DNA of 64,000 bases, from contig CAZGOA010000002.1 in assembly GCA_964527425.1 (NCBI GenBank), positions 73,346-137,345 on the forward strand, read 5' to 3'. The stretch is from an uncultured Gammaproteobacteria bacterium. GTDB taxonomy: Bacteria; Patescibacteriota; Microgenomatia; UBA10105; UBA927. Within the stretch, counting starts at the first letter, position 1, and the number at the start of each line of letters is the position of its first letter. The notes beneath the pieces were generated by a model. The model was not told the DNA's origin and made no database searches. It saw only the letters and a list, made by a program, of their open reading frames with translations. Positions 3,169 to 44,749 of the stretch are shown here, piece by piece. A program made the position numbers and the translations under genes.

Positions 3169-5040
3169 TTAAACAAATGCAGCTTTAAATCTTCTTATAC
3201 CACTTCCAACAGCTTCTTCTTTCAATATTTTAAATACTTTTCCATCATGTTGTAATTCCCCCGTATTCTGTACATGTGGTCCACCACAAAATTCAGCAGA
3301 AAAATAAGAATCAGGAGTAGCATTTTCTGGCTTAATAGATGGATTTAAACCAATAAAATATACATTAACGCGATCAGGATATTTCTGCCCAAACTCCATT
3401 TGAGCTCCGATTCGTTCTGCATCTTTTTTATTCATTACAACAAGTTTTACATCTACAGATTTCTTAATAACTTCATTTACTAACATTTCTATCTTAGTTT
3501 TTTCTTCTTCGGTTAATTTTCTCTGTAAGCTAACATCAATTCTCAACCGTTCTCCAGTAATATTGCTACCTCTTTGTTTTATTGTTGGATCAACAATTTT
3601 TTGCAATGCTGCTAACAATAAGTGATGTGCGGTATGTAGTCTCGTTGTCTGAATGCTATGATCTGCTAATCCACCCTTAAACATGCCAGCTGCTGCCGAT
3701 CTTGATAAATTCTGATGCTTTTTAAATTCTTCTTCAAACTGATCTTTATTTATCTTTTCTCCTTTTTTATTTGCTATTTCTACAATCATTTCCCAAGGAA
3801 ATCCATATGTTTCATACAATGAAAAAGCTTTCTTTCCATCTAATTTATCAATTTTATGAATTTCGTTCATTCCCTTATCTAAAGTTTTACCAAATCGAAT
3901 TCCTTCTTCTTCAATTAATGATTTTATGCTTGAAGCTTGCTTTGCAACATCTGGATATGCATCAGCATAAACCTCAGTGATTGGATCAACTAATTTACCC
4001 AAGTAAGTCCAGTTATTAACAATTCCTAACTGTCTTCCATACATAATAGATCTTCGCAATAATCTTCTTAAGACATATCCTTGTTGCTTATTAGATGGTA
4101 TTACTCCGTCAGACAGTAACATTACAGCACCTCGAATATGATCAACAATAATTCTAAATGCTTTTGTAGATTCACTATGTTCACCATATTTTATGTTTGT
4201 TATTGATTCCAGATAGTGTATTAAAGGAAGAAAAAAATCAGATTTAAACACATCAGAATCATTATTACTTGCAGCAACTATACGCTCTAAACCACCTCCA
4301 AAATCAACATTTTTTTGTGATAATTCAACTAATGATCCGCTTTCAGTTTTTTTGTATTGCATAAACACAGAATTACCGATTTCCATAAATCGTCCACAAT
4401 CACAATTTGGATGACATTTTTGATTTTTCCATTCAGATTGTTCGTGCAATGCTAACTTTTCGCCAAAATCAAAGAAAATTTCACTATCAGGTCCTCCTGG
4501 CTCACCTGGAGGCATTTTTTCAGGTTCTCCACTTCTGCTCCACCAATTTTTTTTTGCAGAATACGAAAATATCCGTTCATTTTCCAATGCGTTTATACCA
4601 ACACTGGAAAATATTTCTTTCCAAATTTCAATAGATGTATCATCTTTAGGAACATTCTCATTCCCTTCAAACACTGTTACATATAATAATTTGGGATCAA
4701 GGCCTATTTCTTTAGTCAAAAATTCAAAACACCAATGGAGTTGCTCTCTTTTAAAATAATCTCCCAACGACCAATTTCCCAACATTTCAAAAAAAGTAGT
4801 ATGTCTATTATCACCAACTTCTTCAATATCCTGTAAACGTACTGCTTTTTGACTATTAACCAAACGCTTTCCAGAAGGATGTGGTTGTCCTAAAAGATAT
4901 GGAACTAACGGTTGCATACCAGAGCTATTAAACAATGTTGTAGGATCATTTTCTGGAACGAGTGAAGCAGACGGTATTTCTGTATGTCCTTTAGATTTAA
5001 AAAAGGAAATATATTTACTACGGATAACCTGAGATTTCAT
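3169..5040 (-). CDS. alaS: Alanyl-tRNA synthetase, short form lacking the C-terminal C-Ala/DHHA1 domain
   Basis: The catalytic-core N-terminus is AlaS-like (…FFKSKGHTEIPSASLVPENDPTTLF…FFEMLGNWSLGDYFK). The editing domain carries HxxxH and CGGPHV motifs. The likely true start is the internal Met at ~5040 (MKSQVIRSKYISFFK); the track ORF extends upstream to 5163. Confidence 0.85.
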   Translation of the reverse strand: MKSQVIRSKYISFFKSKGHTEIPSASLVPENDPTTLFNSSGMQPLVPYLLGQPHPSGKRLVNSQKAVRLQDIEEVGDNRHTTFFEMLGNWSLGDYFKREQLHWCFEFLTKEIGLDPKLLYVTVFEGNENVPKDDTSIEIWKEIFSSVGINALENERIFSYSAKKNWWSRSGEPEKMPPGEPGGPDSEIFFDFGEKLALHEQSEWKNQKCHPNCDCGRFMEIGNSVFMQYKKTESGSLVELSQKNVDFGGGLERIVAASNNDSDVFKSDFFLPLIHYLESITNIKYGEHSESTKAFRIIVDHIRGAVMLLSDGVIPSNKQQGYVLRRLLRRSIMYGRQLGIVNNWTYLGKLVDPITEVYADAYPDVAKQASSIKSLIEEEGIRFGKTLDKGMNEIHKIDKLDGKKAFSLYETYGFPWEMIVEIANKKGEKINKDQFEEEFKKHQNLSRSAAAGMFKGGLADHSIQTTRLHTAHHLLLAALQKIVDPTIKQRGSNITGERLRIDVSLQRKLTEEEKTKIEMLVNEVIKKSVDVKLVVMNKKDAERIGAQMEFGQKYPDRVNVYFIGLNPSIKPENATPDSYFSAEFCGGPHVQNTGELQHDGKVFKILKEEAVGSGIRRFKAAFV

Positions 5041-5068
5041 GTGAAGGATTATAGCAGAAAAGAGTATC

Positions 5069-14197: not shown

Positions 14198-15955
14198 CTA
14201 GACCTCTACAATCACAGGAACAATGAGTGGGTATCTACCAGTTTCTTTTTCCATCATTTTTGCTAAATTCTCACTGACTACTTTACGTACATATTGCCAG
14301 TCCAAAATACGTCCTTTTTTCAACTTTAATGACTGCATTGTTACCTGTTTAATTTTTTGCATAAGTTCGCCTGATTCCTTCGCATACACAAATCCACGAG
14401 TAATAATATCTGGTTCTGCCGTTACCCTTCCTGTGGCCTCCTCAACAGGAACTACTACTACCACAATTCCCTCTGTTGCAATTTGCTTTCTGTCTCGCAA
14501 CACAACAGTCCCTACATCTCCAATACCTAATCCATCAATCATCACATTCTCAAGACTTACTGAAGAAATAACTTTGGGTCTTTCTCCCTCTTTAAATTCT
14601 ATAATCTGACCTTCTTCAGGAATCAATACATCCTTTTTCCGGTACCCTAAGTCCTCAGCAAGTCGTCTATACTGCATCATATGCTTGTAATTCCCACCTA
14701 TTGGCCATATATATTTGGGTCCAATCGTAGATAATAAAAGCATCAAATCTCCCTGACTCCCATGTCCTGAGACATGCAAATCTTCCATAATATCTGAATA
14801 TGCAACTCGAGCACCTTTTCTATAAATTTGTTCAATAAGCTGTTCAATATTATGTTCATTCCCTGGTATTGGATCAGCTGAAAAAATAACAGTATCTCCA
14901 TCGATAATTTTTACATACCGATGCGCATCGTTAGCAATTCTTGATAATGCGCTATCTGGTTGTCCTTGAGCACCTGCTGCAATTAAAAACTGTTTGTTTG
15001 CAGGAAGTCGTTTTAAATCCTCAGGTCTGATCATGTATTCACGAGGAATGTTCATGTAACCAATATTCACTGCTTCTTCAGTATTCTTATCAATACTTCT
15101 CCCAAAAAGTGCTATTTGTCTACCATGTTTAACAGCAATATCAATAGCAAGTTGAACTCTAGAGAGATTACTTGATTGCGTTGTAAAGAATATTTTTCCA
15201 TGAGATTGTGATAATTCTTTTTCTAGAGTTTCACCAATTACCTGTTCTGATACTGTAAAACCTCGACGTTCACTTCCTAAGCAATCAGTAAGCATACACA
15301 ATACATTCCGTTTCCCCAGCGCTGTAATTTTATCCAGTTCAGATATTTTTCCATCTAAGGGAGTAAAATCAAATTTAAAATCACTACCGTGATACAAAAT
15401 ACCTATAGGTGTTTCAATAATAATATTTGATGTATCTGGAATAGAATGTGTCATTCGTACAAATGATAAACGAAAAGGACCTATCTCAATCTGTTCATCA
15501 AACGAAACACTCTGAACTCGCGAGGAAATTTTAGCTTCCTTTAACTTAATATTTGCTAATGCGGCAGTTAACTTAGTACCCCACATGCTTGGAGCGCCTA
15601 ATTTTTCATATAAATATGGTATTCCTCCAATATGATCATCATGACCATGAGTAAATACTAACCCTCGTATGTACTGCAATTTATCCTGCAGGTAGGTTAC
15701 ATCCGGGATAACTAAATCAACTCCAAACATTTCTGGAGTAGGAAATCCTATACCACAATCCACAATTAAAATATCTTGTAATATGCCATCAATAAGATAT
15801 TCATATACGTACATATTTTTAGTTACATTTCCAGCTCCTCCAATAGGAAAGAGTCGTACACTATCTTTTCCAATAGAACTACTTTTACCTACATGAATAG
15901 TAGATGATGGTTTGTTTACCCCCGTTGAGGCTATGTGTTTGTGAGCTTTAAACAT
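14198..15955 (-). CDS. rnj: Ribonuclease J (metallo-beta-lactamase / beta-CASP RNase)
   Basis: HxHxDH motif (THGHDDHIGG), a beta-CASP region and an RNase J-like length of 585 aa. There is a ~30 aa N-terminal extension. Confidence 0.85.
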   Translation of the reverse strand: MFKAHKHIASTGVNKPSSTIHVGKSSSIGKDSVRLFPIGGAGNVTKNMYVYEYLIDGILQDILIVDCGIGFPTPEMFGVDLVIPDVTYLQDKLQYIRGLVFTHGHDDHIGGIPYLYEKLGAPSMWGTKLTAALANIKLKEAKISSRVQSVSFDEQIEIGPFRLSFVRMTHSIPDTSNIIIETPIGILYHGSDFKFDFTPLDGKISELDKITALGKRNVLCMLTDCLGSERRGFTVSEQVIGETLEKELSQSHGKIFFTTQSSNLSRVQLAIDIAVKHGRQIALFGRSIDKNTEEAVNIGYMNIPREYMIRPEDLKRLPANKQFLIAAGAQGQPDSALSRIANDAHRYVKIIDGDTVIFSADPIPGNEHNIEQLIEQIYRKGARVAYSDIMEDLHVSGHGSQGDLMLLLSTIGPKYIWPIGGNYKHMMQYRRLAEDLGYRKKDVLIPEEGQIIEFKEGERPKVISSVSLENVMIDGLGIGDVGTVVLRDRKQIATEGIVVVVVPVEEATGRVTAEPDIITRGFVYAKESGELMQKIKQVTMQSLKLKKGRILDWQYVRKVVSENLAKMMEKETGRYPLIVPVIVEV

Positions 15956-17179: not shown

Positions 17180-19369
17180 TTAAAACCTTTTTCTACCGCC
17201 ACCAAATCCACCTCGACGTGGTCTACGATCTCCACCTCCCATGTTCATCCTCTCTCGAGGTTCACGAGGTTTATTCGCATCTTCGCCAAAAAGCATAGAG
17301 AGATTAATACGTTTTTGGTCATCGATTTCTGCTACTCTGACTTTTACTTTTTGTCCTAGTTTTACAACTTCTTCAGGATTATTTACGTATTCAGTCGACA
17401 TTTGTGATACATGAACCATTCCTTCTTTACCAGGTAAAATTTCCACAAAAGCTCCAAAATTCATAATACGCTTTACTTCACCTTCAAATTCTTCTCCAAC
17501 TTTCACTTCACGTGTTAATCCTGTTACCCAATCGACTGCTTTTTGAACAGATTCTTCATCAGTTCCTGCAATGGTGACTGATCCGTCATCTTCAACATCT
17601 ACACTTGCTCCAGTTGAGGCAATAATGTTTCGAATCATACGTCCACCAGGACCAATAACTTCTCCAATTTTTTCAGTTGGGACTTTAACCACAACTACTT
17701 TGGGAGCGTATTGAGAAAGTTTAGTTCTTGATGCTGGAATTGCTGCCAACATAACCTCCAAAATTTTCATCTTGGCTTCTTTTGCTCGCTTAAGGGTATT
17801 TTCAACTATCTCATCACTTAATCCATCAATCTTTATATCAAGTTGGATAGCAGTAATACCATTTTTTGTTCCTGCAACTTTAAAATCCATATCTCCGGCA
17901 AAATCTTCAATTCCCATGATATCTGTTAATAATTCATATTTATCACCATCAGTCATAAGACCAATAGAAATTCCGGCAACAGGTTCTTTAATTGGAACAC
18001 CTGCGTCCATAAGTGCCAAAGTAGATCCACAGGTAGATGCCATCGATGTTGATCCATTACTAGACATGATTTCAGATACCAATCTCATGGTGTACGGAAA
18101 TTCTTCTAGTGATGGAATAACAGCCAGTAACGCTCGCTCTGCTAATGCCCCATGACCAATTTCCCGACGAGAAGATGTGCCTATTCTTCCGGTTTCTCCA
18201 ACAGAATAAGGAGGCATATTATAGTGATGAATATATCGTTTTGATTCTTCACCAGCCGGTCCTTCTATTAATTGTTCCAGAGCAGGTGTGCCAAGTGTTG
18301 CAACTGTAAGTGCTTGGGTTTGACCACGTTGAAATATTGCACTTCCATGAGTTCTGGGTAAAATACCAACTTCTGCATGGAGCGAACGGATTTCATTCAA
18401 ACCTCGTCCATCCACACGTTTTTTGTGTTCAATAATATCTTTACGTACTTTCTTTTTAAACAGTTTATCAAGGGTTGCTTCAATATCTTTGACACTATAT
18501 TCATTTGCATAAGCCTCAGCTATCGTTTTCGCCAATACTGTAACATCATCTCCTGCACTTTCTTTTTGTACATTCTTCATAAATACTGCTTCCATATCTT
18601 TATAATAATCAGCAGTAATCTTCGTTTTTAATTCTTCTAAAGCATGTTCATCAGGTACAGGAAGTTTTGTTTTTCCTACATCTGCTACCAACTCATTAAT
18701 AAGATCAATTATTTTTGCGTTCTCTTGTTTAGCACTTAATACAGCATTGTAAACAACATCTTCAGCTGTTTCACAAAAACCGCCTTCTAACATAACCACT
18801 TTTTCTTTATTGGAAGAAATAACAAAATCAAATTCACTGATTCCCTGTTCTGCCACAGTAGGATTTACTAAATACATATCTGGTTCATCATCTTTTCCTT
18901 GTATATACCCCATACGAACACCGCCGATTGGACCGTTCCAAGGAACTGGTGATATGGCAAGAGCGGCACTTGTTGCAACAAGTCCTAATATATCTGGATC
19001 ATTTTCACCATCCACAGATAAAACTGTAATAATTACTTGAACATCTCTTTTAAACGATTTTGGGAAGAGTGGACGAATTGATCTATCAATAACTCTTCCA
19101 GCTAAAACAGCGTCATCCGTAGGTCTACCTTCACGCTTAACCCAACGTGATCCTTTAATACGACCACCTGCATATAATCGTTCCACATATTCAACACTCA
19201 GCGGAAAATAATCCAGTGAAGATTCTTTACCGGAAACCGTAACGGTTGCTAACACCATGGTATCTCCATAACGTGCCATAACAGCAGCAGATGCTTGTTG
19301 GGCAACACGTCCAACTTCTAGGGTTAACGTTTTTCCACCAATTTCGGTGGATTTACTAACAATATTCAT
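17180..19369 (-). CDS. pnp: Polynucleotide phosphorylase
   Basis: Two RNase PH domains, then KH and S1 domains. The N-terminus MNIVSKSTEIGGKTLTLEVGRVAQQA aligns with the PNPase start. The track ORF (to 19426) is extended only by an alternative GTG start. The C-terminus has an RGG-rich tail. Confidence 0.9.
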   Translation of the reverse strand: MNIVSKSTEIGGKTLTLEVGRVAQQASAAVMARYGDTMVLATVTVSGKESSLDYFPLSVEYVERLYAGGRIKGSRWVKREGRPTDDAVLAGRVIDRSIRPLFPKSFKRDVQVIITVLSVDGENDPDILGLVATSAALAISPVPWNGPIGGVRMGYIQGKDDEPDMYLVNPTVAEQGISEFDFVISSNKEKVVMLEGGFCETAEDVVYNAVLSAKQENAKIIDLINELVADVGKTKLPVPDEHALEELKTKITADYYKDMEAVFMKNVQKESAGDDVTVLAKTIAEAYANEYSVKDIEATLDKLFKKKVRKDIIEHKKRVDGRGLNEIRSLHAEVGILPRTHGSAIFQRGQTQALTVATLGTPALEQLIEGPAGEESKRYIHHYNMPPYSVGETGRIGTSSRREIGHGALAERALLAVIPSLEEFPYTMRLVSEIMSSNGSTSMASTCGSTLALMDAGVPIKEPVAGISIGLMTDGDKYELLTDIMGIEDFAGDMDFKVAGTKNGITAIQLDIKIDGLSDEIVENTLKRAKEAKMKILEVMLAAIPASRTKLSQYAPKVVVVKVPTEKIGEVIGPGGRMIRNIIASTGASVDVEDDGSVTIAGTDEESVQKAVDWVTGLTREVKVGEEFEGEVKRIMNFGAFVEILPGKEGMVHVSQMSTEYVNNPEEVVKLGQKVKVRVAEIDDQKRINLSMLFGEDANKPREPRERMNMGGGDRRPRRGGFGGGRKRF

Positions 19370-19457
19370 GAAGATATATGAAGAATAGATACATTGAAGA
19401 CAGATGATGGAAGACACAATCTTCACACATCCAACTTCAATGTTACCTTATATCTTC
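19370..19457 (-). promoter_or_regulatory. pnp 5' leader with nested inverted repeats (candidate processing or autoregulatory stem-loop)
   Basis: GAAGATATA (19370-78) pairs with TATATCTTC (19449-57). ACATTGAAG (19391-99) pairs with CTTCAATGT (19435-43). The innermost hairpin is GAAGAcacaaTCTTC. The outer stem abuts the pnp start codon. Confidence 0.4.
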
Positions 19458-19489
19458 ATCCTCCTAATATATAAAAATACAATTCTGTA

Positions 19490-19882
19490 TTATTTGCCTA
19501 ATCCTAATTTTTTTGTTACTTCAGCGTATCGCTTTGAATCCTGTTTCTCAAGATAGTTTAATAATCGACGTCTTTTACTAACAATTCCAAGTAATCCACG
19601 TCTAGAATGATTATCAGAATGGTTGGTTTTTAAATGAAGTATAAGTTTTTCTATACGATTCGTTAAAAGAGCAACTTGAACTTCTGGACTACCAGTATCA
19701 CCATCTTTTACAGCATATTGTTCAATAATTGTCTTTTTCTCTGCGCTGGGTTCAGGTGTAATTTCTTCTTTTTCTGCTTTTTTAGTTACTTTTTTTGCTT
19801 TTTTAGGAGCTTCGGTTGATGCAACTGATTCTTCTTTTGCAACTTTTTTTGTTTTTTCTTCTGTTTGTTTTGCTTTTGCCAT
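19490..19882 (-). CDS. rpsO: Ribosomal protein uS15 with a ~45 aa Lys/Ala/Glu-rich N-terminal extension
   Basis: The C-terminal 85 aa match the S15 core (…[27 protein letters not shown]…). The N-terminal extension is KAKK/KKV-rich and low in complexity. Confidence 0.85.
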
Positions 19883-33995: not shown

Positions 33996-35286
33996 ACCAA
34001 TAAGAATCCCTACTATTTTCGCACTCCTCTTCGTAGGAGTTCTTCTCTTAACAATGACATGGATTACTAAAATAATTTCACAGCCAACACAAGCAGACGT
34101 AGGTAAACTTCCTAAAGATATTCAAGTAACAAATGTGTCAGACACATCGTTCACAGTACTCTGGATTACAGAAAAACCAACACGTGGAGTAATCCAAGTA
34201 ACTCCTCCAGATGGTCAAGCATTAACGTTTTATGATGATCATGCAGTGCAATCCCAAAATCAAGAATTTACGACTCATAGCGTAACTGTACGGGGCATGC
34301 AAGCACTCACACAATACACCATCACGTTTCTAAATACTCCAGACAAAACACTTACTATAACGACAGGACCAACGCTTTCACTTAATTCAAATCAATTAGG
34401 TCCTCTCCATGGCTCAGTAAAAAATTCAGATGGAACACCTGCAGTAGGCTCTTTAGTCTATCTTGCTTTAGAAGGAAGCCAAATACTTTCAACGACAGTA
34501 AAGGATTCAGGAAGTTTTCTCATCCCTCTTAATTTATTACGAACAGAAGATACTACCGCATATCTACCTGTTAAAGAAGAACCACTACCTGTTACTCTCA
34601 CGATTATATCTCCAACAGGAGAAAAAACCATAGCAACAACAAATACAGATAACGACTCTCCAGTTCCCGATATAACTTTAGGCCAACCAAACGACTTTAC
34701 ACAATCATCTGTAAAACCAACTCCTGTACTTGCTGAAAAACAATCATCGTTTCAATCCGTACTCGGTACAATAAATACAACAGCAGTAGCTTCTTCTAGT
34801 GTAACTCTGGCAACACCGATTCAAGGAGGAATAGTACGGAGTGAATATCCGTTTATTACTGGCAAAGGTATTCCAGATGAAATAGTAACAATTATTATAG
34901 GAAGCAAAAGTCCTACTGTTGATACTGTACGAGTTAAAAAAGATGGAACCTGGCAATTTACACCAAAAAAAGGCATACCAGCAGGAAACCAAAGTGTTAC
35001 TATCTCTTCGTTTGATGAAAATAAAAATCCAATTTCTATAACGCACCTGTTTCAAATTATGAAAAGTGGTACTCAAGTACTCGGTGATGCAACTCCGTCC
35101 GCAAGTCCAACAATAATTCTTCCAACCCCAATAAGCACAATTAGCGCAACACCAATCCCCACCTTGCTAATAGAACCTACTCCTACAACCGAAATTCCCA
35201 CAACAGCAACGACAGTACCTACCTATATCTTATTAGCAGCAGGAATATCATTAAGTATTATCGGATTACTTGTTTTTATACTGTAA
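33988..35286 (+). CDS. Surface protein. It has an N-terminal signal anchor, an FN3-like domain, a bacterial Ig-like domain and a C-terminal TM anchor.
   Basis: FN3-like segment: VTNVSDTSFTVLWITEKPTRGVIQV…YTITF. Ig-like segment: IVTIIIGSKSPTVDTVRVKKDGTWQFTPKK. C-terminus: …TEIPTTATTVPTYILLAAGISLSIIGLLVFIL. Confidence 0.5.
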   Translation: MNKPIRIPTIFALLFVGVLLLTMTWITKIISQPTQADVGKLPKDIQVTNVSDTSFTVLWITEKPTRGVIQVTPPDGQALTFYDDHAVQSQNQEFTTHSVTVRGMQALTQYTITFLNTPDKTLTITTGPTLSLNSNQLGPLHGSVKNSDGTPAVGSLVYLALEGSQILSTTVKDSGSFLIPLNLLRTEDTTAYLPVKEEPLPVTLTIISPTGEKTIATTNTDNDSPVPDITLGQPNDFTQSSVKPTPVLAEKQSSFQSVLGTINTTAVASSSVTLATPIQGGIVRSEYPFITGKGIPDEIVTIIIGSKSPTVDTVRVKKDGTWQFTPKKGIPAGNQSVTISSFDENKNPISITHLFQIMKSGTQVLGDATPSASPTIILPTPISTISATPIPTLLIEPTPTTEIPTTATTVPTYILLAAGISLSIIGLLVFIL

Positions 35287-35377: not shown

Positions 35378-36850
35378 ATGGATTTATACGATCAAGCACA
35401 AAAAAATAATGAACCACAATCATCAGATCTGCCTGATCTCTCCTCACTCATGTCACCACCACAAGATAGTCAACCAGTTCAAACCCAACCTCCTCCACCA
35501 CAAATTGAACCTATTTCTGCATTGGATGTTCCCGTAACCCCGCCAATTTCTGATCAACCGACAGTAGATACACCACCAGTACAATCCGCAACGCCTGACA
35601 TTTCGCCTTTACCAACATCTGTTCCACCTATTGCTAATCCAGAAACACCCATGCCCACTCCACAAGAAGTAAAACCCACAGATCTTGCTTCAGAAGCTGT
35701 AATATCGAATTCACCTGATGCCAATACTTTACCTACACCAGATTCCTCCAAGCCAGATACTGTGGCAAACACACCAGATACCCAAACATTTATGCACATG
35801 AGTGATATACCCCGTGACACAGTTCCCTCTTCTCCTGTAACCGAAACAGTCCCATCTCCAGCACCACTGGATAATTCACCACCTAATACTACCCCTCCAG
35901 TACCACCAAATGCAGCGACACCATCCAAAAAGTTCACAATGGGAAGAGGAATTCTCTTTGCAGTACTTGCTCTAGCGATACTTACCCTTCCTGTCATTGG
36001 ATTTTTTGTAACACGACCCAATTCTCAAACAGATACGCGTACCCAAGCTGCAATAAGCAATTGTGCGATCCCTGGCGATCCAGATTGTGATATAACATCA
36101 CCAACTAACACTCCTCCAAGTAGCACATCTAATTCTGCCACAACCCCCGCTACGCAAACACAAACGGTACAATCGCAAGCCGGCTGTAGTTCTTTAGGGA
36201 ATCCATGTGAAAACAACGGCTGCTGTACTGGACTAGTCTGTCAGGGAAATACCGGCAATCGTGTATGTCAACAGCCAGCAACAACTCCTGATCAATGGTG
36301 TGGGGGAACACCCGGTTCTTGTGGCAGACTAATAGCTTTCCATTGCAATAGTGATTTCCCAAGTGGAACACCCGAATCAGGTTGTTTTGATAATCCAATT
36401 TATATCCAAAATAATGATGCAGCAGGCTGGGCTCAGGCACGTGCACATGTTGCCGGCTGTGGTCAAATAGACGTCGTTTGTAAAAGTGGCCCTAAAGAAA
36501 ACCAATTATGTGGAGATTTCGAAATTTTCAAAGATAATTGTGGTCCTGGCTCACAACCGACACCTATTCCAATATCTCAATGTAGAAATTTAAAAATTTA
36601 TCGTGATGGTATAGTTGTAAAAACTAAAGATTACAATACTCTTCGACCACAACAACAAATTCAGTTCGCAGTTGTATCAAACCAAGAGGCAGCACGAGCT
36701 CGATTTTACATTAACGGTAAAGATCCAGTCATATCGACAGAAAAAAATGAAAATGGTGAATTTTTTATTAACTGGGAAATACCAGAAGTAGGTAGTCAGA
36801 GGACATTTACAGTACAAGCAGAAGTTCGAATAAATGGAGTTTGGCAATAA
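35378..36850 (+). CDS. Bitopic surface protein of an unrecognised family, paralogous to 37885-38391 at both the N- and C-terminal modules
   Basis: N-terminal DLPDLSSLMSPPQD motif and a Pro-rich cytoplasmic region. A TM at about residue 195. Cys-rich extracytoplasmic region (GCSSLGNPCENNGCCTGLVCQGN…). C-terminal beta domain ending …RINGVWQ. Confidence 0.5.
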   Translation: MDLYDQAQKNNEPQSSDLPDLSSLMSPPQDSQPVQTQPPPPQIEPISALDVPVTPPISDQPTVDTPPVQSATPDISPLPTSVPPIANPETPMPTPQEVKPTDLASEAVISNSPDANTLPTPDSSKPDTVANTPDTQTFMHMSDIPRDTVPSSPVTETVPSPAPLDNSPPNTTPPVPPNAATPSKKFTMGRGILFAVLALAILTLPVIGFFVTRPNSQTDTRTQAAISNCAIPGDPDCDITSPTNTPPSSTSNSATTPATQTQTVQSQAGCSSLGNPCENNGCCTGLVCQGNTGNRVCQQPATTPDQWCGGTPGSCGRLIAFHCNSDFPSGTPESGCFDNPIYIQNNDAAGWAQARAHVAGCGQIDVVCKSGPKENQLCGDFEIFKDNCGPGSQPTPIPISQCRNLKIYRDGIVVKTKDYNTLRPQQQIQFAVVSNQEAARARFYINGKDPVISTEKNENGEFFINWEIPEVGSQRTFTVQAEVRINGVWQ

Positions 36851-37880
36851 TATGAAAAACATTTCAAAATTCGCTGTGACTCTTGGCTTATTAATTACTT
36901 CTCTATTAATTGCAACGACGGCAGTATTAGTAATTCAATTAAGAAACCGTCAGGCAATAACAGATTTACCACCTGAGGCCGCAGTTGATGCGTGTAAAAT
37001 AGTATTTACGATTGATCCGGTGTGCAAAACTGACTTTACCCTCCTTCCTCCTGAGTCACCAGAAAATACACCAACACCTTCCGTTTTACCAACCGTAACA
37101 ATTTCACCACAATGCACAAGTGCGTGTGATCCTGCAGGAAGAAACCAGCAGTGTCCAACAAATCACAGCTGCGCACCAGCAAACCATCCTAATGCTAATA
37201 CCTGCATATTAACTGCATGTGTACAAAATCCTGATCTTTGTAACAGCACAAGCTGCTCACTATTACCAACACCGCCTTCAACTAATACACCCACCCCACA
37301 AGCTACTAACACTCCAACAGTACGTGCAACAAATACACCGATAAATACACCGACAAATACACAAATTCCTCCAACAAACACTATTGCATCCACTAGTACA
37401 CCAAATCCAACCGCAACACCAAATCCTTTATGCGGATCATCATGCGATCCTGATGGGTCAAGCAATCAATGTCCATCGAATCATACCTGTGCACCAGATA
37501 GTCATCCAAATGCCAATACCTGTATTCTCACTTCGTGTGTACAAAATCCAAGCCTATGCTCAAATAACAGCTGCACAGTCCTCCCAACACCAACAGCTGT
37601 ACGTACGTCAACACCGACTCAACCAATTGCATACTCACCGTCATCTACGCCCATACCAGGCTCATGTAATGCTAACTGTTCGACAGATAGTAATTGTGCA
37701 AACAACTTAGTATGCTCAGGTGGTACGTGCCGCAACCCAGAATGCACTGAGCAAGCTAATTGTTCATGCTCGATACAGCCAACGCCAGAAATTCCTGTAA
37801 CAGGCACAGGAACTACTCTAGTAGGTATTGGTATAATTGTTGGAGGAATACTACTCTTACTGTTAGGATTAGCATTTTAA
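36834..37880 (+). CDS. Cysteine-rich repeat surface protein with a C-terminal EIPVTG sorting signal
   Basis: N-terminal signal anchor. Two ~55 aa 8-Cys repeats (CxxxCDPxGxxxQCPxNHxCAPxxHPNANTCILTxCVQNPxLC) and a third degenerate Cys-rich module. The C-terminus reads PEIPVTGTGTTLVGIGIIVGGILLLLLGLAF. Confidence 0.5.
   Translation: MEFGNNMKNISKFAVTLGLLITSLLIATTAVLVIQLRNRQAITDLPPEAAVDACKIVFTIDPVCKTDFTLLPPESPENTPTPSVLPTVTISPQCTSACDPAGRNQQCPTNHSCAPANHPNANTCILTACVQNPDLCNSTSCSLLPTPPSTNTPTPQATNTPTVRATNTPINTPTNTQIPPTNTIASTSTPNPTATPNPLCGSSCDPDGSSNQCPSNHTCAPDSHPNANTCILTSCVQNPSLCSNNSCTVLPTPTAVRTSTPTQPIAYSPSSTPIPGSCNANCSTDSNCANNLVCSGGTCRNPECTEQANCSCSIQPTPEIPVTGTGTTLVGIGIIVGGILLLLLGLAF
37114..37598 (+). 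repeat. Intragenic duplicated ~165-nt module encoding the 8-Cys domain, two copies at about 37114-37278 and 37431-37598
   Basis: The two nucleotide segments are roughly 75% identical. Compare tgcacaagtgcgtgtgatcctgcaggaag… with tgcggatcatcatgcgatcctgatgggtc…, and …aatacctgcatattaactgcatgtgtacaaaatcc… with …aatacctgtattctcacttcgtgtgtacaaaatcc…. Confidence 0.7.
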
Positions 37881-37884
37881 CACT

Positions 37885-38391
37885 ATGAATACACAGCCAA
37901 ACAACCAAGATTTTCCAGACCTATCAATACTTATGAATACACAACCGGTTCATGATCCGACGCCACCACCAAGTCATGCACAAAAAAAGCGCTCACCAAT
38001 ACTAGGGTTGTCTATCCTGCTACTCATCTTATTTTTTGGTGCAACTAGTGCTATTCTCATCTGGCAAACTCAATCAAGAGAAACTATTGCACGAGTTGAA
38101 ACACAAGCCGAAGAACCCACTGATACAGTGCCAAAATCCTGTAAACGTCTGACCATTTATAAAGATGGAGTCGCTGTAACTGACTATAATACACTTAGAG
38201 CTGGTGACACTGTAACCTTAGCTACTCCCATTGGTTCTGCAGTTAAAGCGAGATTTACTATTAATAAAACAGAGGTAGAATCGACAAAAGTTACCTTTAA
38301 TAATGAGTTCATCGTTGACTATACATTCCCCTTGGATATGCGTGCCGTTCGTATCAAGGTAGAGCGAAAAATAGATGGCATCTGGCAATAA
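37885..38391 (+). CDS. Small bitopic surface protein, paralogue of 35378-36850
   Basis: N-terminal DFPDLSILMNTQP motif. TM (ILGLSILLLILFFGATSAILIW). C-terminal domain CKRLTIYKDGVAVTDYNTLRAGD…KIDGIWQ, alignable with the C-terminus of the 490 aa protein. Confidence 0.5.
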   Translation: MNTQPNNQDFPDLSILMNTQPVHDPTPPPSHAQKKRSPILGLSILLLILFFGATSAILIWQTQSRETIARVETQAEEPTDTVPKSCKRLTIYKDGVAVTDYNTLRAGDTVTLATPIGSAVKARFTINKTEVESTKVTFNNEFIVDYTFPLDMRAVRIKVERKIDGIWQ

Positions 38392-42348: not shown

Positions 42349-42349
42349 C

Positions 42350-42568
42350 CTACATAAAAAATGATATTATTTTTATGGCAGCCAAAATTAATGTACCTAA
42401 TACAATTAATAGGGATAATATAATCTCAATTTCCAGAAATAATCGAGCAATCCCTCTTACACTTCCAAAAGAAAACAACGGGGTTATAAATCGACTATCT
42501 ATCGGTAACCAACTAATAGGATATTCTATCGTTTTTTTATACGATCTCTTGCTTTTTTTTGTTTTCAT
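42350..42568 (-). CDS. Possible small C-terminally anchored membrane protein
   Basis: The internal-Met version is ~72 aa (MKTKKSKRSY…IILSLLIVLGTLILAAIKIISFFM). The longer track ORF overlaps the FemAB start, so this call is weak. Confidence 0.2.
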   Translation of the reverse strand: MKTKKSKRSYKKTIEYPISWLPIDSRFITPLFSFGSVRGIARLFLEIEIILSLLIVLGTLILAAIKIISFFM

Positions 42569-42624
42569 ATCTTCATTGTAACAAACAACACCTACATGGG
42601 ATAATACCTCTATTATAACTTGAT

Positions 42625-43599
42625 ATGCGTAAATCTTCACTTTCAAATAATTTGACAGAAAACTGGAATTCATTAGTAAATCACCCACTTCAATCATATG
42701 AATGGGGTCTATTTCGTGAGAAAACTGGTGTTAAAGTCGTTCGATTTGATGAAACACCACACCCTTATCAATTAACAATACATAAACTTCCCTATCTTCC
42801 TTATAGGATTGGATATCTACCAAAAGGACCACCAATTACTCAAACAATGATAAATACCTTATACAACTATGGGAAAGCACATAACATTATTTTCTTTCAA
42901 TTAGAACCTGATGTTGTAGAAAAATTATCAGACCATACCCCTCAATTTCCGTTTATAAAACCTTCGCATCATCCATTATTTACGAAACATACGTTTATGA
43001 TAGATTTATCAAAAACAGAAGATCAGTTACTTGCTTCTATGCACCCCAAGACTCGATATAACCTAAAAGTCGCTCAAAAACATAAAGTCGTTATAAAAAA
43101 TGATAATTCAAAAGAAGCCTTTACAGAATATCTACGGCTTGTTGAAGAAACAACAAAACGTCAAGGATTTTATGCCCATTCACTTTCCTATCACAAAAAA
43201 ATGTGGGAAACATTATCGCCATCTATCGCTCGGCTTTGGACTGCTTCCTATCAGGGAACTATTGTGGCCGCCTGGATAATATTTTTATGGAAAGAAACTA
43301 TGTATTATCCTTATGGCACCTCTTCTCGAGAATTTCGTAATATTATGGCACCAAATTTATTACTCTGGGAAATTATAAAATGGGGTAAAAAACATAAGTA
43401 CAACTATTTTGATTTATGGGGTGCACTGGGACCGAATCCTGACCAAAACGATCCGTTTTATGGATTTCATCGATTTAAAGCAGGATTTAGTCCAGAATTA
43501 GTTACCTTTATTGGCTCTTTTGATTTAGTTGTAAACCCTTTACTCTATAAACTTTATTGCATCGCAGACACCATCAGATGGAAATTATTAAAGAAATAA
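42625..43599 (+). CDS. FemAB-family aminoacyl-tRNA-dependent peptidoglycan peptide-bridge transferase (FemX-like)
   Basis: 324 aa with FemAB-fold motifs (…KTRYNLKVAQKHKV…, …YYPYGTSSREFRN…, …FYGFHRFKAGF…). Confidence 0.7.
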   Translation: MRKSSLSNNLTENWNSLVNHPLQSYEWGLFREKTGVKVVRFDETPHPYQLTIHKLPYLPYRIGYLPKGPPITQTMINTLYNYGKAHNIIFFQLEPDVVEKLSDHTPQFPFIKPSHHPLFTKHTFMIDLSKTEDQLLASMHPKTRYNLKVAQKHKVVIKNDNSKEAFTEYLRLVEETTKRQGFYAHSLSYHKKMWETLSPSIARLWTASYQGTIVAAWIIFLWKETMYYPYGTSSREFRNIMAPNLLLWEIIKWGKKHKYNYFDLWGALGPNPDQNDPFYGFHRFKAGFSPELVTFIGSFDLVVNPLLYKLYCIADTIRWKLLKK

Positions 43600-43602
43600 T
43601 AA

Positions 43603-43872
43603 GCGAAAAGGTTGGAAGCAAACCATTCCGGGATAGGTGAATATCCGATCGCGGAATGTGGAGAACCAATCACACTAAGTTTTAGCCAAATTAACAACAA
43701 ATATTTAATTAAATTCTTGAGTGTGAGCATTGAAAAAAGAATGAGTAGTTTTCGAGAGAACAATTTAGGGGGGATTCCCCACGAATTGTGGGAGGGGGGG
43801 CGGACAGTCCCCCGAATTGTGAACGAAGAAAACCATTCTTTTTTCACCAGCTCACGAGCTTTTGGTCCTTTT
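43603..43872 (+). other. Intergenic region that looks like a candidate structured RNA of unknown class. It is G-tract-rich and higher in GC than its surroundings, and ends in a small hairpin plus T-tract.
   Basis: A ~300 nt non-coding gap between the two FemAB genes contains a GGGGGG run at 43768-73 and a GGGGGGG run at 43794-800. A repeated CCCC(A)CGAATTGTG(G/A)A unit occurs twice. An AGCTCacgGAGCT hairpin (43849-60) is followed by TTTTGGTCCTTTT. Confidence 0.2.
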
Positions 43873-43888
43873 GGCGATTCAAAAAGAC

Positions 43889-44749
43889 ATGAATAAATGT
43901 ATGGAACTCCAACAATCTCCACTTTATGCAGCATATGTAAAAAAGCTAGGATGGACAATCGAACGGATTGATTCTACAAATATTTTTCTCAAGAAAATTC
44001 CTTTTATAGGAACATTTGCAAAAATACAAAGAATAGAACAACTGCCTGGAGTAGAATCAGTATTAACGTTATTCAGAAAATATCATATTAAGCGAACAGT
44101 CCTAGAAGCAGGACCAAATGTAAATGAACAAGAATTTAAACACTGGTGCAATGAAATTAGTAAGCATGTTACCGTTATTTCTTCCCCTTATATTCCAACA
44201 AAAACCTTACTTGTTGATTTAACTCTTTCTGAAGAAAAAATATTCCAACAATTTTCTGAAGCAAAACGACGAGCAGTAAGAAGAGCCAAAAAAAATAATG
44301 TTATTGTTACGGAGTCACAAAACATTCAAGAACTTATTACCATAAAAAACCGTTCTGCTGGTTTGTTTGGATTTATTACCACACATGGAGTTAAACAATT
44401 ATGGGAAGTATTTTCACCTGAAAAAGCAACTTGTGTATTAGCATACACACAAGATAAAAAACTCATAGGAGGAGTTTTACTTATTTTCTGGGAAGATATA
44501 GCCTATTACTGGATTGCTGGTTCAATCAAACAAGGCAAAAAACTTTTTGCACCAACCCTTCTTGCATACGAGGCCATGAAAATAGCAAAAAAAAGAAATG
44601 CCAAGCAATTTGATTTTGTTGGTGTTTGGGATGAACGCTTTCCCAAAGAAAATAAAGAATGGTTAGGTTTTACTAAATTTAAAGAAGGTTTCGGAGGAAA
44701 AACTCTTTATTATCCAACACATAAACACAGAAATATTAACGCAGCATAG
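43889..44749 (+). CDS. FemAB-family peptidyltransferase, second tandem paralogue
   Basis: FemAB motifs (…KRRAVRRAKKNNV…, …YYWIAGSIKQGKK…, …LGFTKFKEGFGG…). The track start is an alternative TTG codon; ATG at 43889 or 43901 is more likely. Confidence 0.65.
   Translation: MNKCMELQQSPLYAAYVKKLGWTIERIDSTNIFLKKIPFIGTFAKIQRIEQLPGVESVLTLFRKYHIKRTVLEAGPNVNEQEFKHWCNEISKHVTVISSPYIPTKTLLVDLTLSEEKIFQQFSEAKRRAVRRAKKNNVIVTESQNIQELITIKNRSAGLFGFITTHGVKQLWEVFSPEKATCVLAYTQDKKLIGGVLLIFWEDIAYYWIAGSIKQGKKLFAPTLLAYEAMKIAKKRNAKQFDFVGVWDERFPKENKEWLGFTKFKEGFGGKTLYYPTHKHRNINAA

Follow-up and report, generated by a model that had tools for sequence, protein, structure and literature searches.

What is a G-rich island of about 300 nt doing between two FemAB-family genes in a Patescibacteria genome? 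In the stretch of DNA that we analyzed (64 kb, referred to here as the window), 301 nt lie between the stop codon of fem1 and the start codon of fem2 (positions 43600-43900), and a first-pass annotation had singled out this spacer as a GC-elevated, non-coding island and a candidate structured RNA. We found such an island there. It is the most GC-rich long spacer in the window, with a GC content that peaks at 0.50 (43750-43849), compared to ~0.33 in the surroundings and to 0.25-0.37 in the 13 other gaps of at least 80 nt. The GGGGGG and GGGGGGG runs reported within it (43768-43773 and 43794-43800, respectively) are the sole G runs of six or more nucleotides in 64 kb. Our best explanation, which we hold with modest confidence, is that ~295 nt of non-coding sequence, assembled from hairpin modules, inserted here recently in one Patescibacteria (Microgenomates-like) species, to which it is confined, and that it is transcribed with the operon.

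The neighbors at this locus are FemAB, NUDIX, UvrD-like, and PD-(D/E)XK helicase genes. The fem2 gene starts at ATG 43901, at ATGGAACTCCAACAA, and the same start is kept in loci L019, L020, L021, L121, and L122. Nine relatives keep fem1-fem2, and in six of these the order UvrD-small ORF-fem1-fem2-NUDIX-helicase is visible. Their fem1-fem2 spacers measure 1, 2, 4, 5, 5, 9, 13, 30, and 113 nt, and none is homologous to the element; the 113-nt spacer is a hairpin unrelated to it in sequence. As the relatives' spacers are 1-30 nt long, with this one unrelated exception, the element is a young insertion that is restricted to a single species. Excising 43600-43896 yields AAAGAAATAA-ATGT-ATGG, which resembles the junctions of the relatives. 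We detected the element in 26 contigs of the species, from many independent samples and invariably at the fem1-fem2 junction, indicating that it is not an assembly artifact. An identical copy of the fem1 protein is encoded in 23 contigs. The ~295 nt would have landed between two FemAB genes that formerly abutted and were probably translationally coupled. In other lineages, the same junction holds unrelated hairpin-forming sequence, both in L008 (z = -5.3) and in L005 (an 18-bp palindrome).

Table 1. Features of the fem1-fem2 spacer and its flanks, in window coordinates (helices are from the predicted fold)
Feature	Position	Strand	Description
fem1	42625..43599	+	Upstream flank; FemAB-family peptidyl/aminoacyl transferase gene, 324 aa; Pfam PF02388, E 1.2e-31
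AATAA, left copy	43595..43599		Possible 5-bp target-site duplication, read from sequence; overlaps fem1 stop codon
Inserted element	43600..43896	+	~292-297 nt; without counterpart in all relatives
P1, 5′ strand	43603..43619	+	GC.AAAAGGUUGGAAGC; end-to-end closing helix; pair probabilities 0.95-0.99; 4 G-U pairs
P2 hairpin	43624..43658	+	CAUUCCG/CGGAAUG outer stem, GAU/AUC, GG/CC, 7-nt loop; pair probabilities 0.92-0.98; coincides with inverted repeat I3
Linker	43659..43722	+	A/U-rich, without stable fold; pair probabilities <0.2
P3, 5′ strand	43723..43754	+	Long interrupted stem with perfect 13-nt arm UGAAAAAAGAAUG; arm is inverted repeat I1, 100% complementary; pair probabilities 0.89-0.99
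P4 hairpin	43760..43789	+	ACAAUUU..GGGG-loop-CCCC..GAAUUGU; inverted repeats I4 and I5; pair probability 0.56
Direct repeat D2, copy 1	43778..43790	+	CCCACGAATTGTG; repeat search
P5 hairpin	43795..43813	+	GGGGGGC-GGACA-GUCCCCC; pair probability 0.92; carries G7 run (G6 in haplotype 2)
Direct repeat D2, copy 2	43809..43821	+	CCCCCGAATTGTG; repeat search
P3, 3′ strand	43824..43855	+	Includes CAUUCUUUUUUCA; inverted repeat I1
P1, 3′ strand	43858..43875	+	GCUUUUGG.UCCUUUU.GGC
3′ tail hairpin	43877..43894	+	Small; AUUCA...UGAAU
AATAA, right copy	43892..43896		Possible 5-bp target-site duplication, read from sequence
fem2	43901..44749	+	Downstream flank; second FemAB-family gene, 282 aa; Pfam PF02388, E 3.5e-13

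Folding predictions gave -97.5 kcal/mol (z = -6.94) for the + strand of the spacer and -82.1 kcal/mol (z = -4.59) for the - strand. After regression on GC, the spacer ranked first among 2,550 300-nt windows on both strands of the 64 kb. The proposal of a structured RNA was supported in part: folding is exceptional and stronger on the + strand, but conservation is missing. Helices P1, P2, P3, and P5 are predicted with pair probabilities of 0.89-0.99. P1 is a 16-bp terminal helix that joins both ends of the insertion, with the fem1 stop codon 3 nt 5′ of it and the fem2 start 25 nt 3′. G-U pairs account for 7 of the 73 pairs in robust helices and become A-C mismatches if read from the other strand. 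P4 holds the G6 run and the first copy of D2, and its 5′ arm is alternatively predicted to pair with the second copy.

A short 3′ hairpin followed by a T-tract, also described in the first-pass annotation, is present (AGCU-CACG-AGCU-UUUUGG, 43850-43865) but fails the terminator scan, and in the global fold its bases sit in helices P1 and P3. Scanning the + strand of the spacer revealed no internal sigma-70 promoter and no intrinsic terminator. As neither was detectable, the element is most likely transcribed within the fem1-fem2 mRNA.

The spacer has a modular build, with repeats D1, D2, I1, I4, and I5. The CCCC(A) unit that had been seen to occur twice is D2, whose pattern, CCC(A/C)CGAATTGTG, is identical at 12 of 13 positions between the copies; the second imperfect repeat, GAAG(C/A)AAACCATTC, is likewise present (43615-43628 and 43825-43838, 13 of 14 identical). 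As a pattern, CCC(A/C)CGAATTGTG is not much above chance, with at least two matches in 10 of 100 shuffles. What stands out is the setting of the copies, each of which lies immediately 3′ of a G/C hairpin. When the three hairpin units were aligned, only the duplication of the P4 and P5 tails gained support; a third copy in P2 did not.

In the model that we favor, the insertion would comprise two G/C hairpins, each followed by CGAAUUGUG, together with a perfect 13-bp A/U inverted repeat and a repeated AAACCAUUC motif. As a probable part of the fem1-fem2 mRNA, its + strand would fold into a closed multi-hairpin body that the 16-bp P1 helix loops out of the transcript, and this self-contained fold may be the reason that the insertion was tolerable. 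Any effect would probably be generic, that of an intercistronic stem-loop on the processing or stability of the mRNA, with fem2 translation being uncoupled or bridged. The element is probably neutral, or acts only on mRNA processing and translational coupling; we do not think that it senses a ligand or tRNA. The analysis shows the insertion, its confinement to one species, its folding potential, and that it is most likely non-coding; co-transcription, any effect on expression, and an origin from a mobile or foreign fragment with internal duplication are inferred. Against this model, the composition, with the only G6 and G7 runs in 64 kb, and the strand-specific G-U pairs could also point to an RNA whose structure had evolved under selection in another setting, prior to its arrival here.

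Several known systems share parts of this architecture. Like rRNA IVS and hok-like type I toxin mRNAs, the element is self-contained and lineage-specific and has its ends paired in a long helix, and by analogy P1 could be an RNase III substrate. Unlike an rRNA IVS, it lies outside any rRNA gene, and, unlike in the hok-like mRNAs, a short hydrophobic ORF is missing from its structured (+) strand, for which reason a type I toxin was rejected. The element also resembles a retron msr-msd in that its ends pair as a1/a2, enclosing short hairpin(s) and then one long interrupted hairpin, over ~270 nt. Unlike a retron, it has no adjacent reverse transcriptase gene, and none of the genes called at the locus has an RVT domain; FemAB genes flank the element, with NUDIX and helicase genes beyond, and the closing helix has an A rather than a branching G immediately after its 5′ strand. 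Two further candidates that we discarded on inspection by eye were a CsrA sponge, as the GGA count equals the compositional expectation, and a DGR template repeat, as no variable-repeat copy occurs within the window.

Small palindromic intergenic elements include the intercistronic REP/BIME stem-loops of enterobacterial operons (for example, malE-malF), BOX, RUP, ERIC, Correia, and Rickettsia RPE. Such families have many copies per genome and a recognizable consensus. Our element resembles them in being non-coding, hairpin-forming, modular, and variably present in close relatives, and in lying between genes that are probably co-transcribed; by analogy, it would be expected to act on mRNA stability, processing, and downstream translation rather than by sensing. 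Unlike them, it is single-copy in ~84 kb of this genome and was not found elsewhere in the sequences searched, and it is longer and more branched than a REP.

We consider it unlikely that the element belongs to a multi-copy family of miniature mobile elements, of the MITE, REP, BOX, or RPE type, moved by a transposase acting in trans. Close species differ in whether they carry the element, although the junction is otherwise conserved; this fits such a family, as do the element's foreign-looking composition, its hairpin-rich body with the inverted repeat GCGAAAAGG/CCTTTTGGC, and the possible 5-bp AATAA duplication. The flanking AATAA repeat is A/T-rich and has a ~6% probability of occurring within 15 nt by chance, making it a weak candidate for a target-site duplication. 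The inverted repeat (8 of 9 positions matching) is subterminal, set back from the ends by 4 nt and by at least 17 nt; unlike a MITE, the element has no terminal inverted repeats at its extreme ends, and the G-U pairs of P1 would be mismatches in DNA. Further copies also failed to appear. Blastn returned only the element itself from the 64-kb window, a further 20 kb of flanking sequence from the same genome, and the loci of 13 relatives (~84 kb), and a covariance model (R1) of the 3′ domain gave the same result for the ~84 kb of the same genome and the 13 relatives' loci. When 15 billion proteins were searched, ORFs called across the element were confined to the fem context.

Searches of mobile genetic elements were similarly negative. 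Blastn against phages and plasmids returned nothing relevant, and two of three pattern scans of viral contigs gave 0 matches. The third, which required two CGAATTGTG copies, matched 84 loci, which we judged to be unrelated since none has the G/C hairpins. Translated ORFs served as a proxy for a nucleotide search; here, a concatenated six-frame query gave no match but carries little weight, as it missed the known self match too. A mobile origin is therefore unproven: neither a second copy nor a source of the inserted sequence was found in the window, the flanks, the relatives' loci, or the phage, plasmid, and viral collections, or by the translated-ORF searches.

We also doubt that the element functions as a structured RNA of recent acquisition, either a cis-regulatory leader of fem2 or a small RNA, possibly responsive to tRNA or cell-wall precursors. 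Such an RNA might switch between alternative pairings, in which ACAAUU binds one or the other AAUUGU copy, or CCUUUU one or the other AAAAGG copy. The extreme, strand-biased folding is consistent with this idea, as are the mutually exclusive helices (I4 versus I5 and, in haplotype 2, P1 versus the 3′ hairpin), the GGA motifs that P4 and P5 carry in their apical loops, and the stable retention of the element across 26 contigs from many samples. Moreover, like T-box and other tRNA-sensing leaders, the element is long and structured, has alternative helices, and precedes a gene for an enzyme that uses aminoacyl-tRNA. Unlike a T-box, it is not conserved 5′ of fem2 in relatives and has no terminator on the + strand; T-box RF00230 gave no match at E ≤ 10, and no specifier loop or T-box sequence was seen in the spacer by eye.

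Comparison with relatives argues against this explanation. The first-pass annotation had suggested that fem2 might have a cis-regulatory leader, perhaps an RNA sensor, and had named an unconserved spacer with no covariation support as evidence against it. The comparison gave this outcome: the element is missing from all nine relatives with fem1-fem2, leaving no conservation, and no covariation among the two near-identical haplotypes that are available for comparison. The annotation's lack of a match to known RNA consensus sequences was borne out, as scanning Rfam gave no trivial explanation. Rfam 15 yielded 0 hits at the gathering threshold across the whole window, and at E ≤ 10 only chance matches to 701 nt and 305 nt (12-18 bits versus thresholds of 34-88). 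ARAGORN found no tRNA and no tmRNA. The spacer also contains neither a terminator nor a sequestered ribosome-binding site through which a switch could exert control.

Natural variation points in the same direction. Two haplotypes occur, with three spacer differences, 0 of them compensatory in all of the variation available. Two of the three polymorphisms disturb P1 without compensation. In haplotype 2, G43618A breaks one P1 pair, and the 3′ tail hairpin is predicted to give way to a 9-bp hairpin, GUCCUUUUG/CAAAAGGAC. With 3 polymorphisms in 300 nt, the spacer is no less variable than its flanks, which have 38 in 6,975, and so gives no sign of constraint, although numbers this small would also be compatible with it.

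A rather improbable reading is that the element is the first member to be seen of an undescribed class of structured RNAs, which the fem operon of a single Patescibacteria lineage acquired not long ago. In that case, its foreign composition and its strand-specific G-U pairs would have resulted from selection on the structure of the RNA. An RNA of this class might be a switch or decoy, with the two G/C hairpins, their CGAAUUGUG tails, and the alternative ACAAUU pairings answering a cellular signal. Alternatively, it might be an "RNA insert" that loops itself out, with the terminal helix re-establishing the coupling of fem1 termination to fem2 initiation.

It is very unlikely that the spacer is a gene for a small orphan protein (94 aa) and thereby forms a translational bridge from fem1 to fem2. 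The ORF in question (TTG 43612 to TAA 43896, + strand) is annotated by gene callers and spans the insertion nearly exactly, beginning 12 nt past the fem1 stop and ending 4 nt short of the fem2 ATG. A + strand ORF of this length occurs in 3% of dinucleotide shuffles, and both strands are open in 0.4%; the - strand carries an ORF of 134 aa, and the openness of both strands is partly due to the palindromic build of the DNA. Contrary to the first-pass annotation, these ORFs are not really low-complexity. Its conclusion that coding is unlikely was nevertheless upheld, since the G7/G6 indel frameshifts the 94-aa ORF between the two natural haplotypes, leaving 69 aa in a common one. The other two haplotype differences would be non-synonymous if the ORF were coding. 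Codon usage differs from that of the genome's genes, scoring 0.058 bits/codon compared to 0.374 ± 0.125 in the real genes of the window, which places the ORF under 99% of real-gene windows. The TTG start leaves no spacing for a ribosome-binding site, and the AlphaFold2 model has a pLDDT of 48. Neither ORF has a Pfam match. A homologue search with the 94-aa ORF recovered only its own 69-aa variant, and the 134-aa ORF, compared to 1.8 billion representatives, gave two repetitive spurious matches outside the structured core. The spacer is most likely non-coding.

Patescibacteria carry tRNA and rRNA group I introns (PMC13011429), and the element shares with these introns its size (~300 nt), high degree of structure, patchy and lineage-specific occurrence, and a phylum rich in them; unlike them, it is intergenic and has no P1/internal guide pairing or core match. 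We regard a catalytic RNA in the operon transcript, either an ORF-less group I intron or a small ribozyme, as the least credible explanation, since Intron_gpI (RF00028), group II, twister, hammerhead, pistol, hatchet, and HDV gave no match at E ≤ 10, no internal guide for the 5′ exon end was seen by eye near the 5′ end (AAGAAAU needs GUUUCUU), the fully nested fold closed by a long terminal helix is unlike a group I core, and splicing at an intergenic site would serve no purpose. On inspection by eye, we rejected a twister, for which the resemblance is limited to GUGGGAGGGGGGGCGG, as well as a hammerhead core, RNase P P4, a tmRNA T-arm, and an anticodon-like loop in P2.

If the spacer is a young, hairpin-built insertion, as we favor, the finding is a minor one: compact Patescibacteria genomes still gain hairpin-rich insertions between tightly coupled genes. 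It would also mean that a thermodynamically strong fold, even the best one in 64 kb, is by itself no indicator of a conserved regulatory RNA. Unrelated hairpin-forming sequences occupy this fem1/fem2 junction in three lineages, a hint that insertions between coupled genes may survive only if they are self-folding. Should homologues with covariation exist, the element would represent a new RNA class tied to cell-wall cross-bridge synthesis.

The spacer between fem1 and fem2, two FemAB-family genes, measures 301 nt from the fem1 stop to the fem2 start. The surrounding genome is A/T-rich (35% GC) and of the Patescibacteria/Microgenomates type; by protein similarity, MAGs of Gottesmanbacteria, Levyibacteria, and Woesebacteria are the closest genome records. 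The first-pass annotation had described the spacer as unusually G-rich, elevated in GC, and repetitive, and this proved correct. GC reaches 0.50 (43750-43849), compared to 0.25-0.37 in the 13 other gaps of at least 80 nt in the window; the G6 and G7 tracts are the only runs of six or more Gs in 64 kb; and both reported direct repeats were located. We also found 13 inverted repeats, including a perfect 13-nt pair, TGAAAAAAGAATG/CATTCTTTTTTCA.

Coordinates of genes, repeats, and predicted RNA helices at the fem1-fem2 junction
Feature	Position	Description
fem1	42625-43599	FemAB family, PF02388 E 1e-31
fem2	43901-44749	FemAB family, PF02388 E 3.5e-13; conserved start ATGGAACTCCAACAA
94-aa ORF	43612-43896	annotated by gene callers across the element
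Both strands open	43554-43958	134 codons on the opposite strand
Direct repeat	43778 and 43809	CCC(A/C)CGAATTGTG
Direct repeat	43615 and 43825	GAAG(C/A)AAACCATTC
G6	43768-73
G7	43794-800
P1	43603-19 with 43858-75	16-bp helix enclosing the entire element
P2	43624-58	hairpin
A/U linker	43659-43722	unstructured
P3	43723-54 with 43824-55	long interrupted stem
P4	43760-89	G/C hairpin capping P3, then CGAAUUGUG
P5	43795-813	G/C hairpin capping P3, then CGAAUUGUG
Hairpin plus T-tract	43850-65

Two other features of the window were recorded. The 276-nt gap between a UvrD-like gene and fem1 (42349-42624) contains a + strand ORF of 68 aa (42375-42581), also called in close relatives such as locus L019; in loci L121 and L122, a 66-80-aa ORF is called at this place on the opposite strand, leaving the coding strand uncertain. 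Three ORFs in a row at 35378-38391, of 490, 348, and 168 aa, code for proteins rich in Pro/Thr/Ser that resemble secreted or membrane-anchored proteins. Cys is also abundant in the first two, and a similar C-terminal module (…YKDG/YRDG…TLR…ARF.ING…GVWQ/GIWQ) is found in both the first and the third.

The decisive evidence was comparative. We gathered relatives by protein similarity and fetched their contigs, nine of which keep the fem1-fem2 pair; where flanks suffice, the neighborhood reads UvrD-small ORF-fem1-fem2-NUDIX-helicase. The fem1-fem2 spacers measure 1 nt in L019 (Fem2 identity 79%), 4 nt in L021 (78%), 5 nt in L020 (77%), 13 nt in the P0004 contig (78%), 5 nt in L121 (65%), 2 nt in L122 (61%), 9 nt in L007 (58%), 30 nt in L005 (60%), and 113 nt in L008 (55%). 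None of the nine resembles the window's spacer; fem1 and fem2 therefore abutted ancestrally, and the 300 nt are an insertion restricted to the window's species. The earlier suggestion of a conserved cis-regulatory leader or tRNA sensor finds no support here and fails the refutation test that the first-pass annotation itself had proposed. Within the species, 26 contigs drawn from many independent sequencing runs carry the element, invariably between fem1 and fem2, and Logan contig SRR35759036_3853 is identical to the window. Excising 43600-43896 yields AAAGAAATAA-ATGT-ATGG, resembling the relatives' junctions, and AATAA on either side of the element (about 6% by chance) hints only weakly at a target-site duplication.

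The two longest spacers in relatives carry hairpins of their own, unrelated to the window's element. In L008 (Ga0247842_10000798, 3888-4000), the 113 nt form a single long, perfect-type hairpin of CTCAGAA/TTCCGAG-type heptamer repeats (z = -5.3 on the + strand, -6.2 on the - strand); in L005, a perfect 18-bp palindrome, ATGGTAACATGTTACCAT (5025-5046), overlaps the fem1 stop codon. No further copies of either were seen among the fetched loci. Together, these junctions favor the idea that sequence persists between fem1 and fem2 when it can pair with itself.

Searches for a second copy of the element were negative. Neither blastn nor R1, a covariance model built on the 3′ domain, found one in the window, in 20 kb of further flanks from the same genome (L123 and L124), or in 13 relatives' loci, and none emerged from translated-ORF searches, phage and plasmid collections, or viral contigs. 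The negatives of a query that joined all six frames into one pseudo-protein with X between them are unreliable and carry little weight, since it missed a known self match (P0121). One identical stretch, ...AAAGCTTTACA-CGAATTGTG-TTGATTAATAATCA-CGAATTGTG-TTTAATGATG..., recurs in about 35 viral contigs (IMG/VR L044, L047, L048, and about 30 more). It resembles a conserved phage locus in which two copies of a 9-mer start 23 nt from each other; we judged it unrelated to the element. The element is a new example of a hairpin-rich intergenic insertion, apparently single-copy across the window, the 20 kb of further flanks, and the relatives' loci. That it belongs to a multi-copy MITE or REP family, whose other copies would lie beyond the genome sequence covered, is unlikely, if the strongest of the alternatives.

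The + strand RNA is predicted to fold at -97.5 kcal/mol (z = -6.94) and the - strand RNA at -82.1 kcal/mol (z = -4.59); the spacer is the strongest folding outlier of the window when minimum free energy is regressed on GC over all 300-nt windows on both strands. The next most stable folds, all on the - strand (19151-19500, 15551-15850, and 34501-34800), reach z values between about -2.8 and -3.2 on the regression scale and lie mostly over coding sequence. Five robust helices (P1-P5) emerge from the partition function. Because 7 of their 73 pairs are G-U, the + strand is 15 kcal/mol more stable than the - strand. The pair probability of P4 is only 0.56, and its 5′ arm (ACAAUU) has two possible partners, the two AAUUGU copies (inverted repeats I4/I5). 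The proposal of a structured RNA has thermodynamic support and none beyond it. In line with the first-pass annotation, no known family matched: Rfam 15 gave no match at the gathering threshold over the entire 64-kb window and chance matches only at E <= 10 over the spacer region, and ARAGORN found no tRNA or tmRNA in the window. A promoter/terminator scan returned no + strand signal within the spacer. The reported hairpin plus T-tract is present in the sequence but fails as a terminator.

Across samples the element exists as two haplotypes, one in roughly 17 contigs and the other in roughly 9, which differ by G43618A, G7 to G6, and A43885G. Since they differ at 3/300 nt in the spacer and 38/6,975 nt overall, nothing points to extra constraint on the spacer. 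The minimum-free-energy fold of haplotype 2 (-99.2 kcal/mol, z = -6.9) keeps P2-P5; its closing helix is remodeled because G43618A breaks a P1 G-C pair and A43885G completes an alternative 9-bp 3′ hairpin, GUCCUUUUG/CAAAAGGAC. Comparing the two haplotypes, this could reflect a switch or, equally, an unconstrained P1. An RNA or leader that is functional and was acquired recently is unlikely, slightly more so than a multi-copy family, and only a small chance is left for a genuinely new RNA class.

The 94-aa ORF might instead encode an orphan small protein. Both strands are stop-free for at least 94 codons in only 22 of 5,000 dinucleotide shuffles (0.4%), an oddity to which the palindromic build of the element probably contributes without fully explaining it. 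However, the G6 of haplotype 2 frameshifts the ORF to 69 aa, its codon usage scores 0.058 bits per codon (0.374 +/- 0.125 for the window's genes), it has no Pfam family, its only homologue among 5.8 billion clusters is its own variant, and its AlphaFold2 model has a pLDDT of 48. G43618A and A43885G would both be non-synonymous. We therefore conclude, in agreement with the first-pass annotation, that the spacer is non-coding; a protein is very unlikely. Least credible is an intron or ribozyme: although Patescibacteria often carry group I introns (PMC13011429), the element lies between genes, matches no group I core, and lacks a guide-sequence pairing to an exon end.

On balance, we lean towards an orphan, non-coding insertion of hairpin modules carried in the fem1-fem2 transcript. 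With the end-to-end P1 helix formed, the fem1 stop would lie 3 nt upstream of it and the fem2 start 25 nt downstream, a geometry that may explain how genes once coupled came to tolerate an insertion between them. Any activity would most likely be that of a generic intercistronic stem-loop, in processing, stability, or translational coupling, for which the REP stem-loop between malE and malF is a functional analogue.
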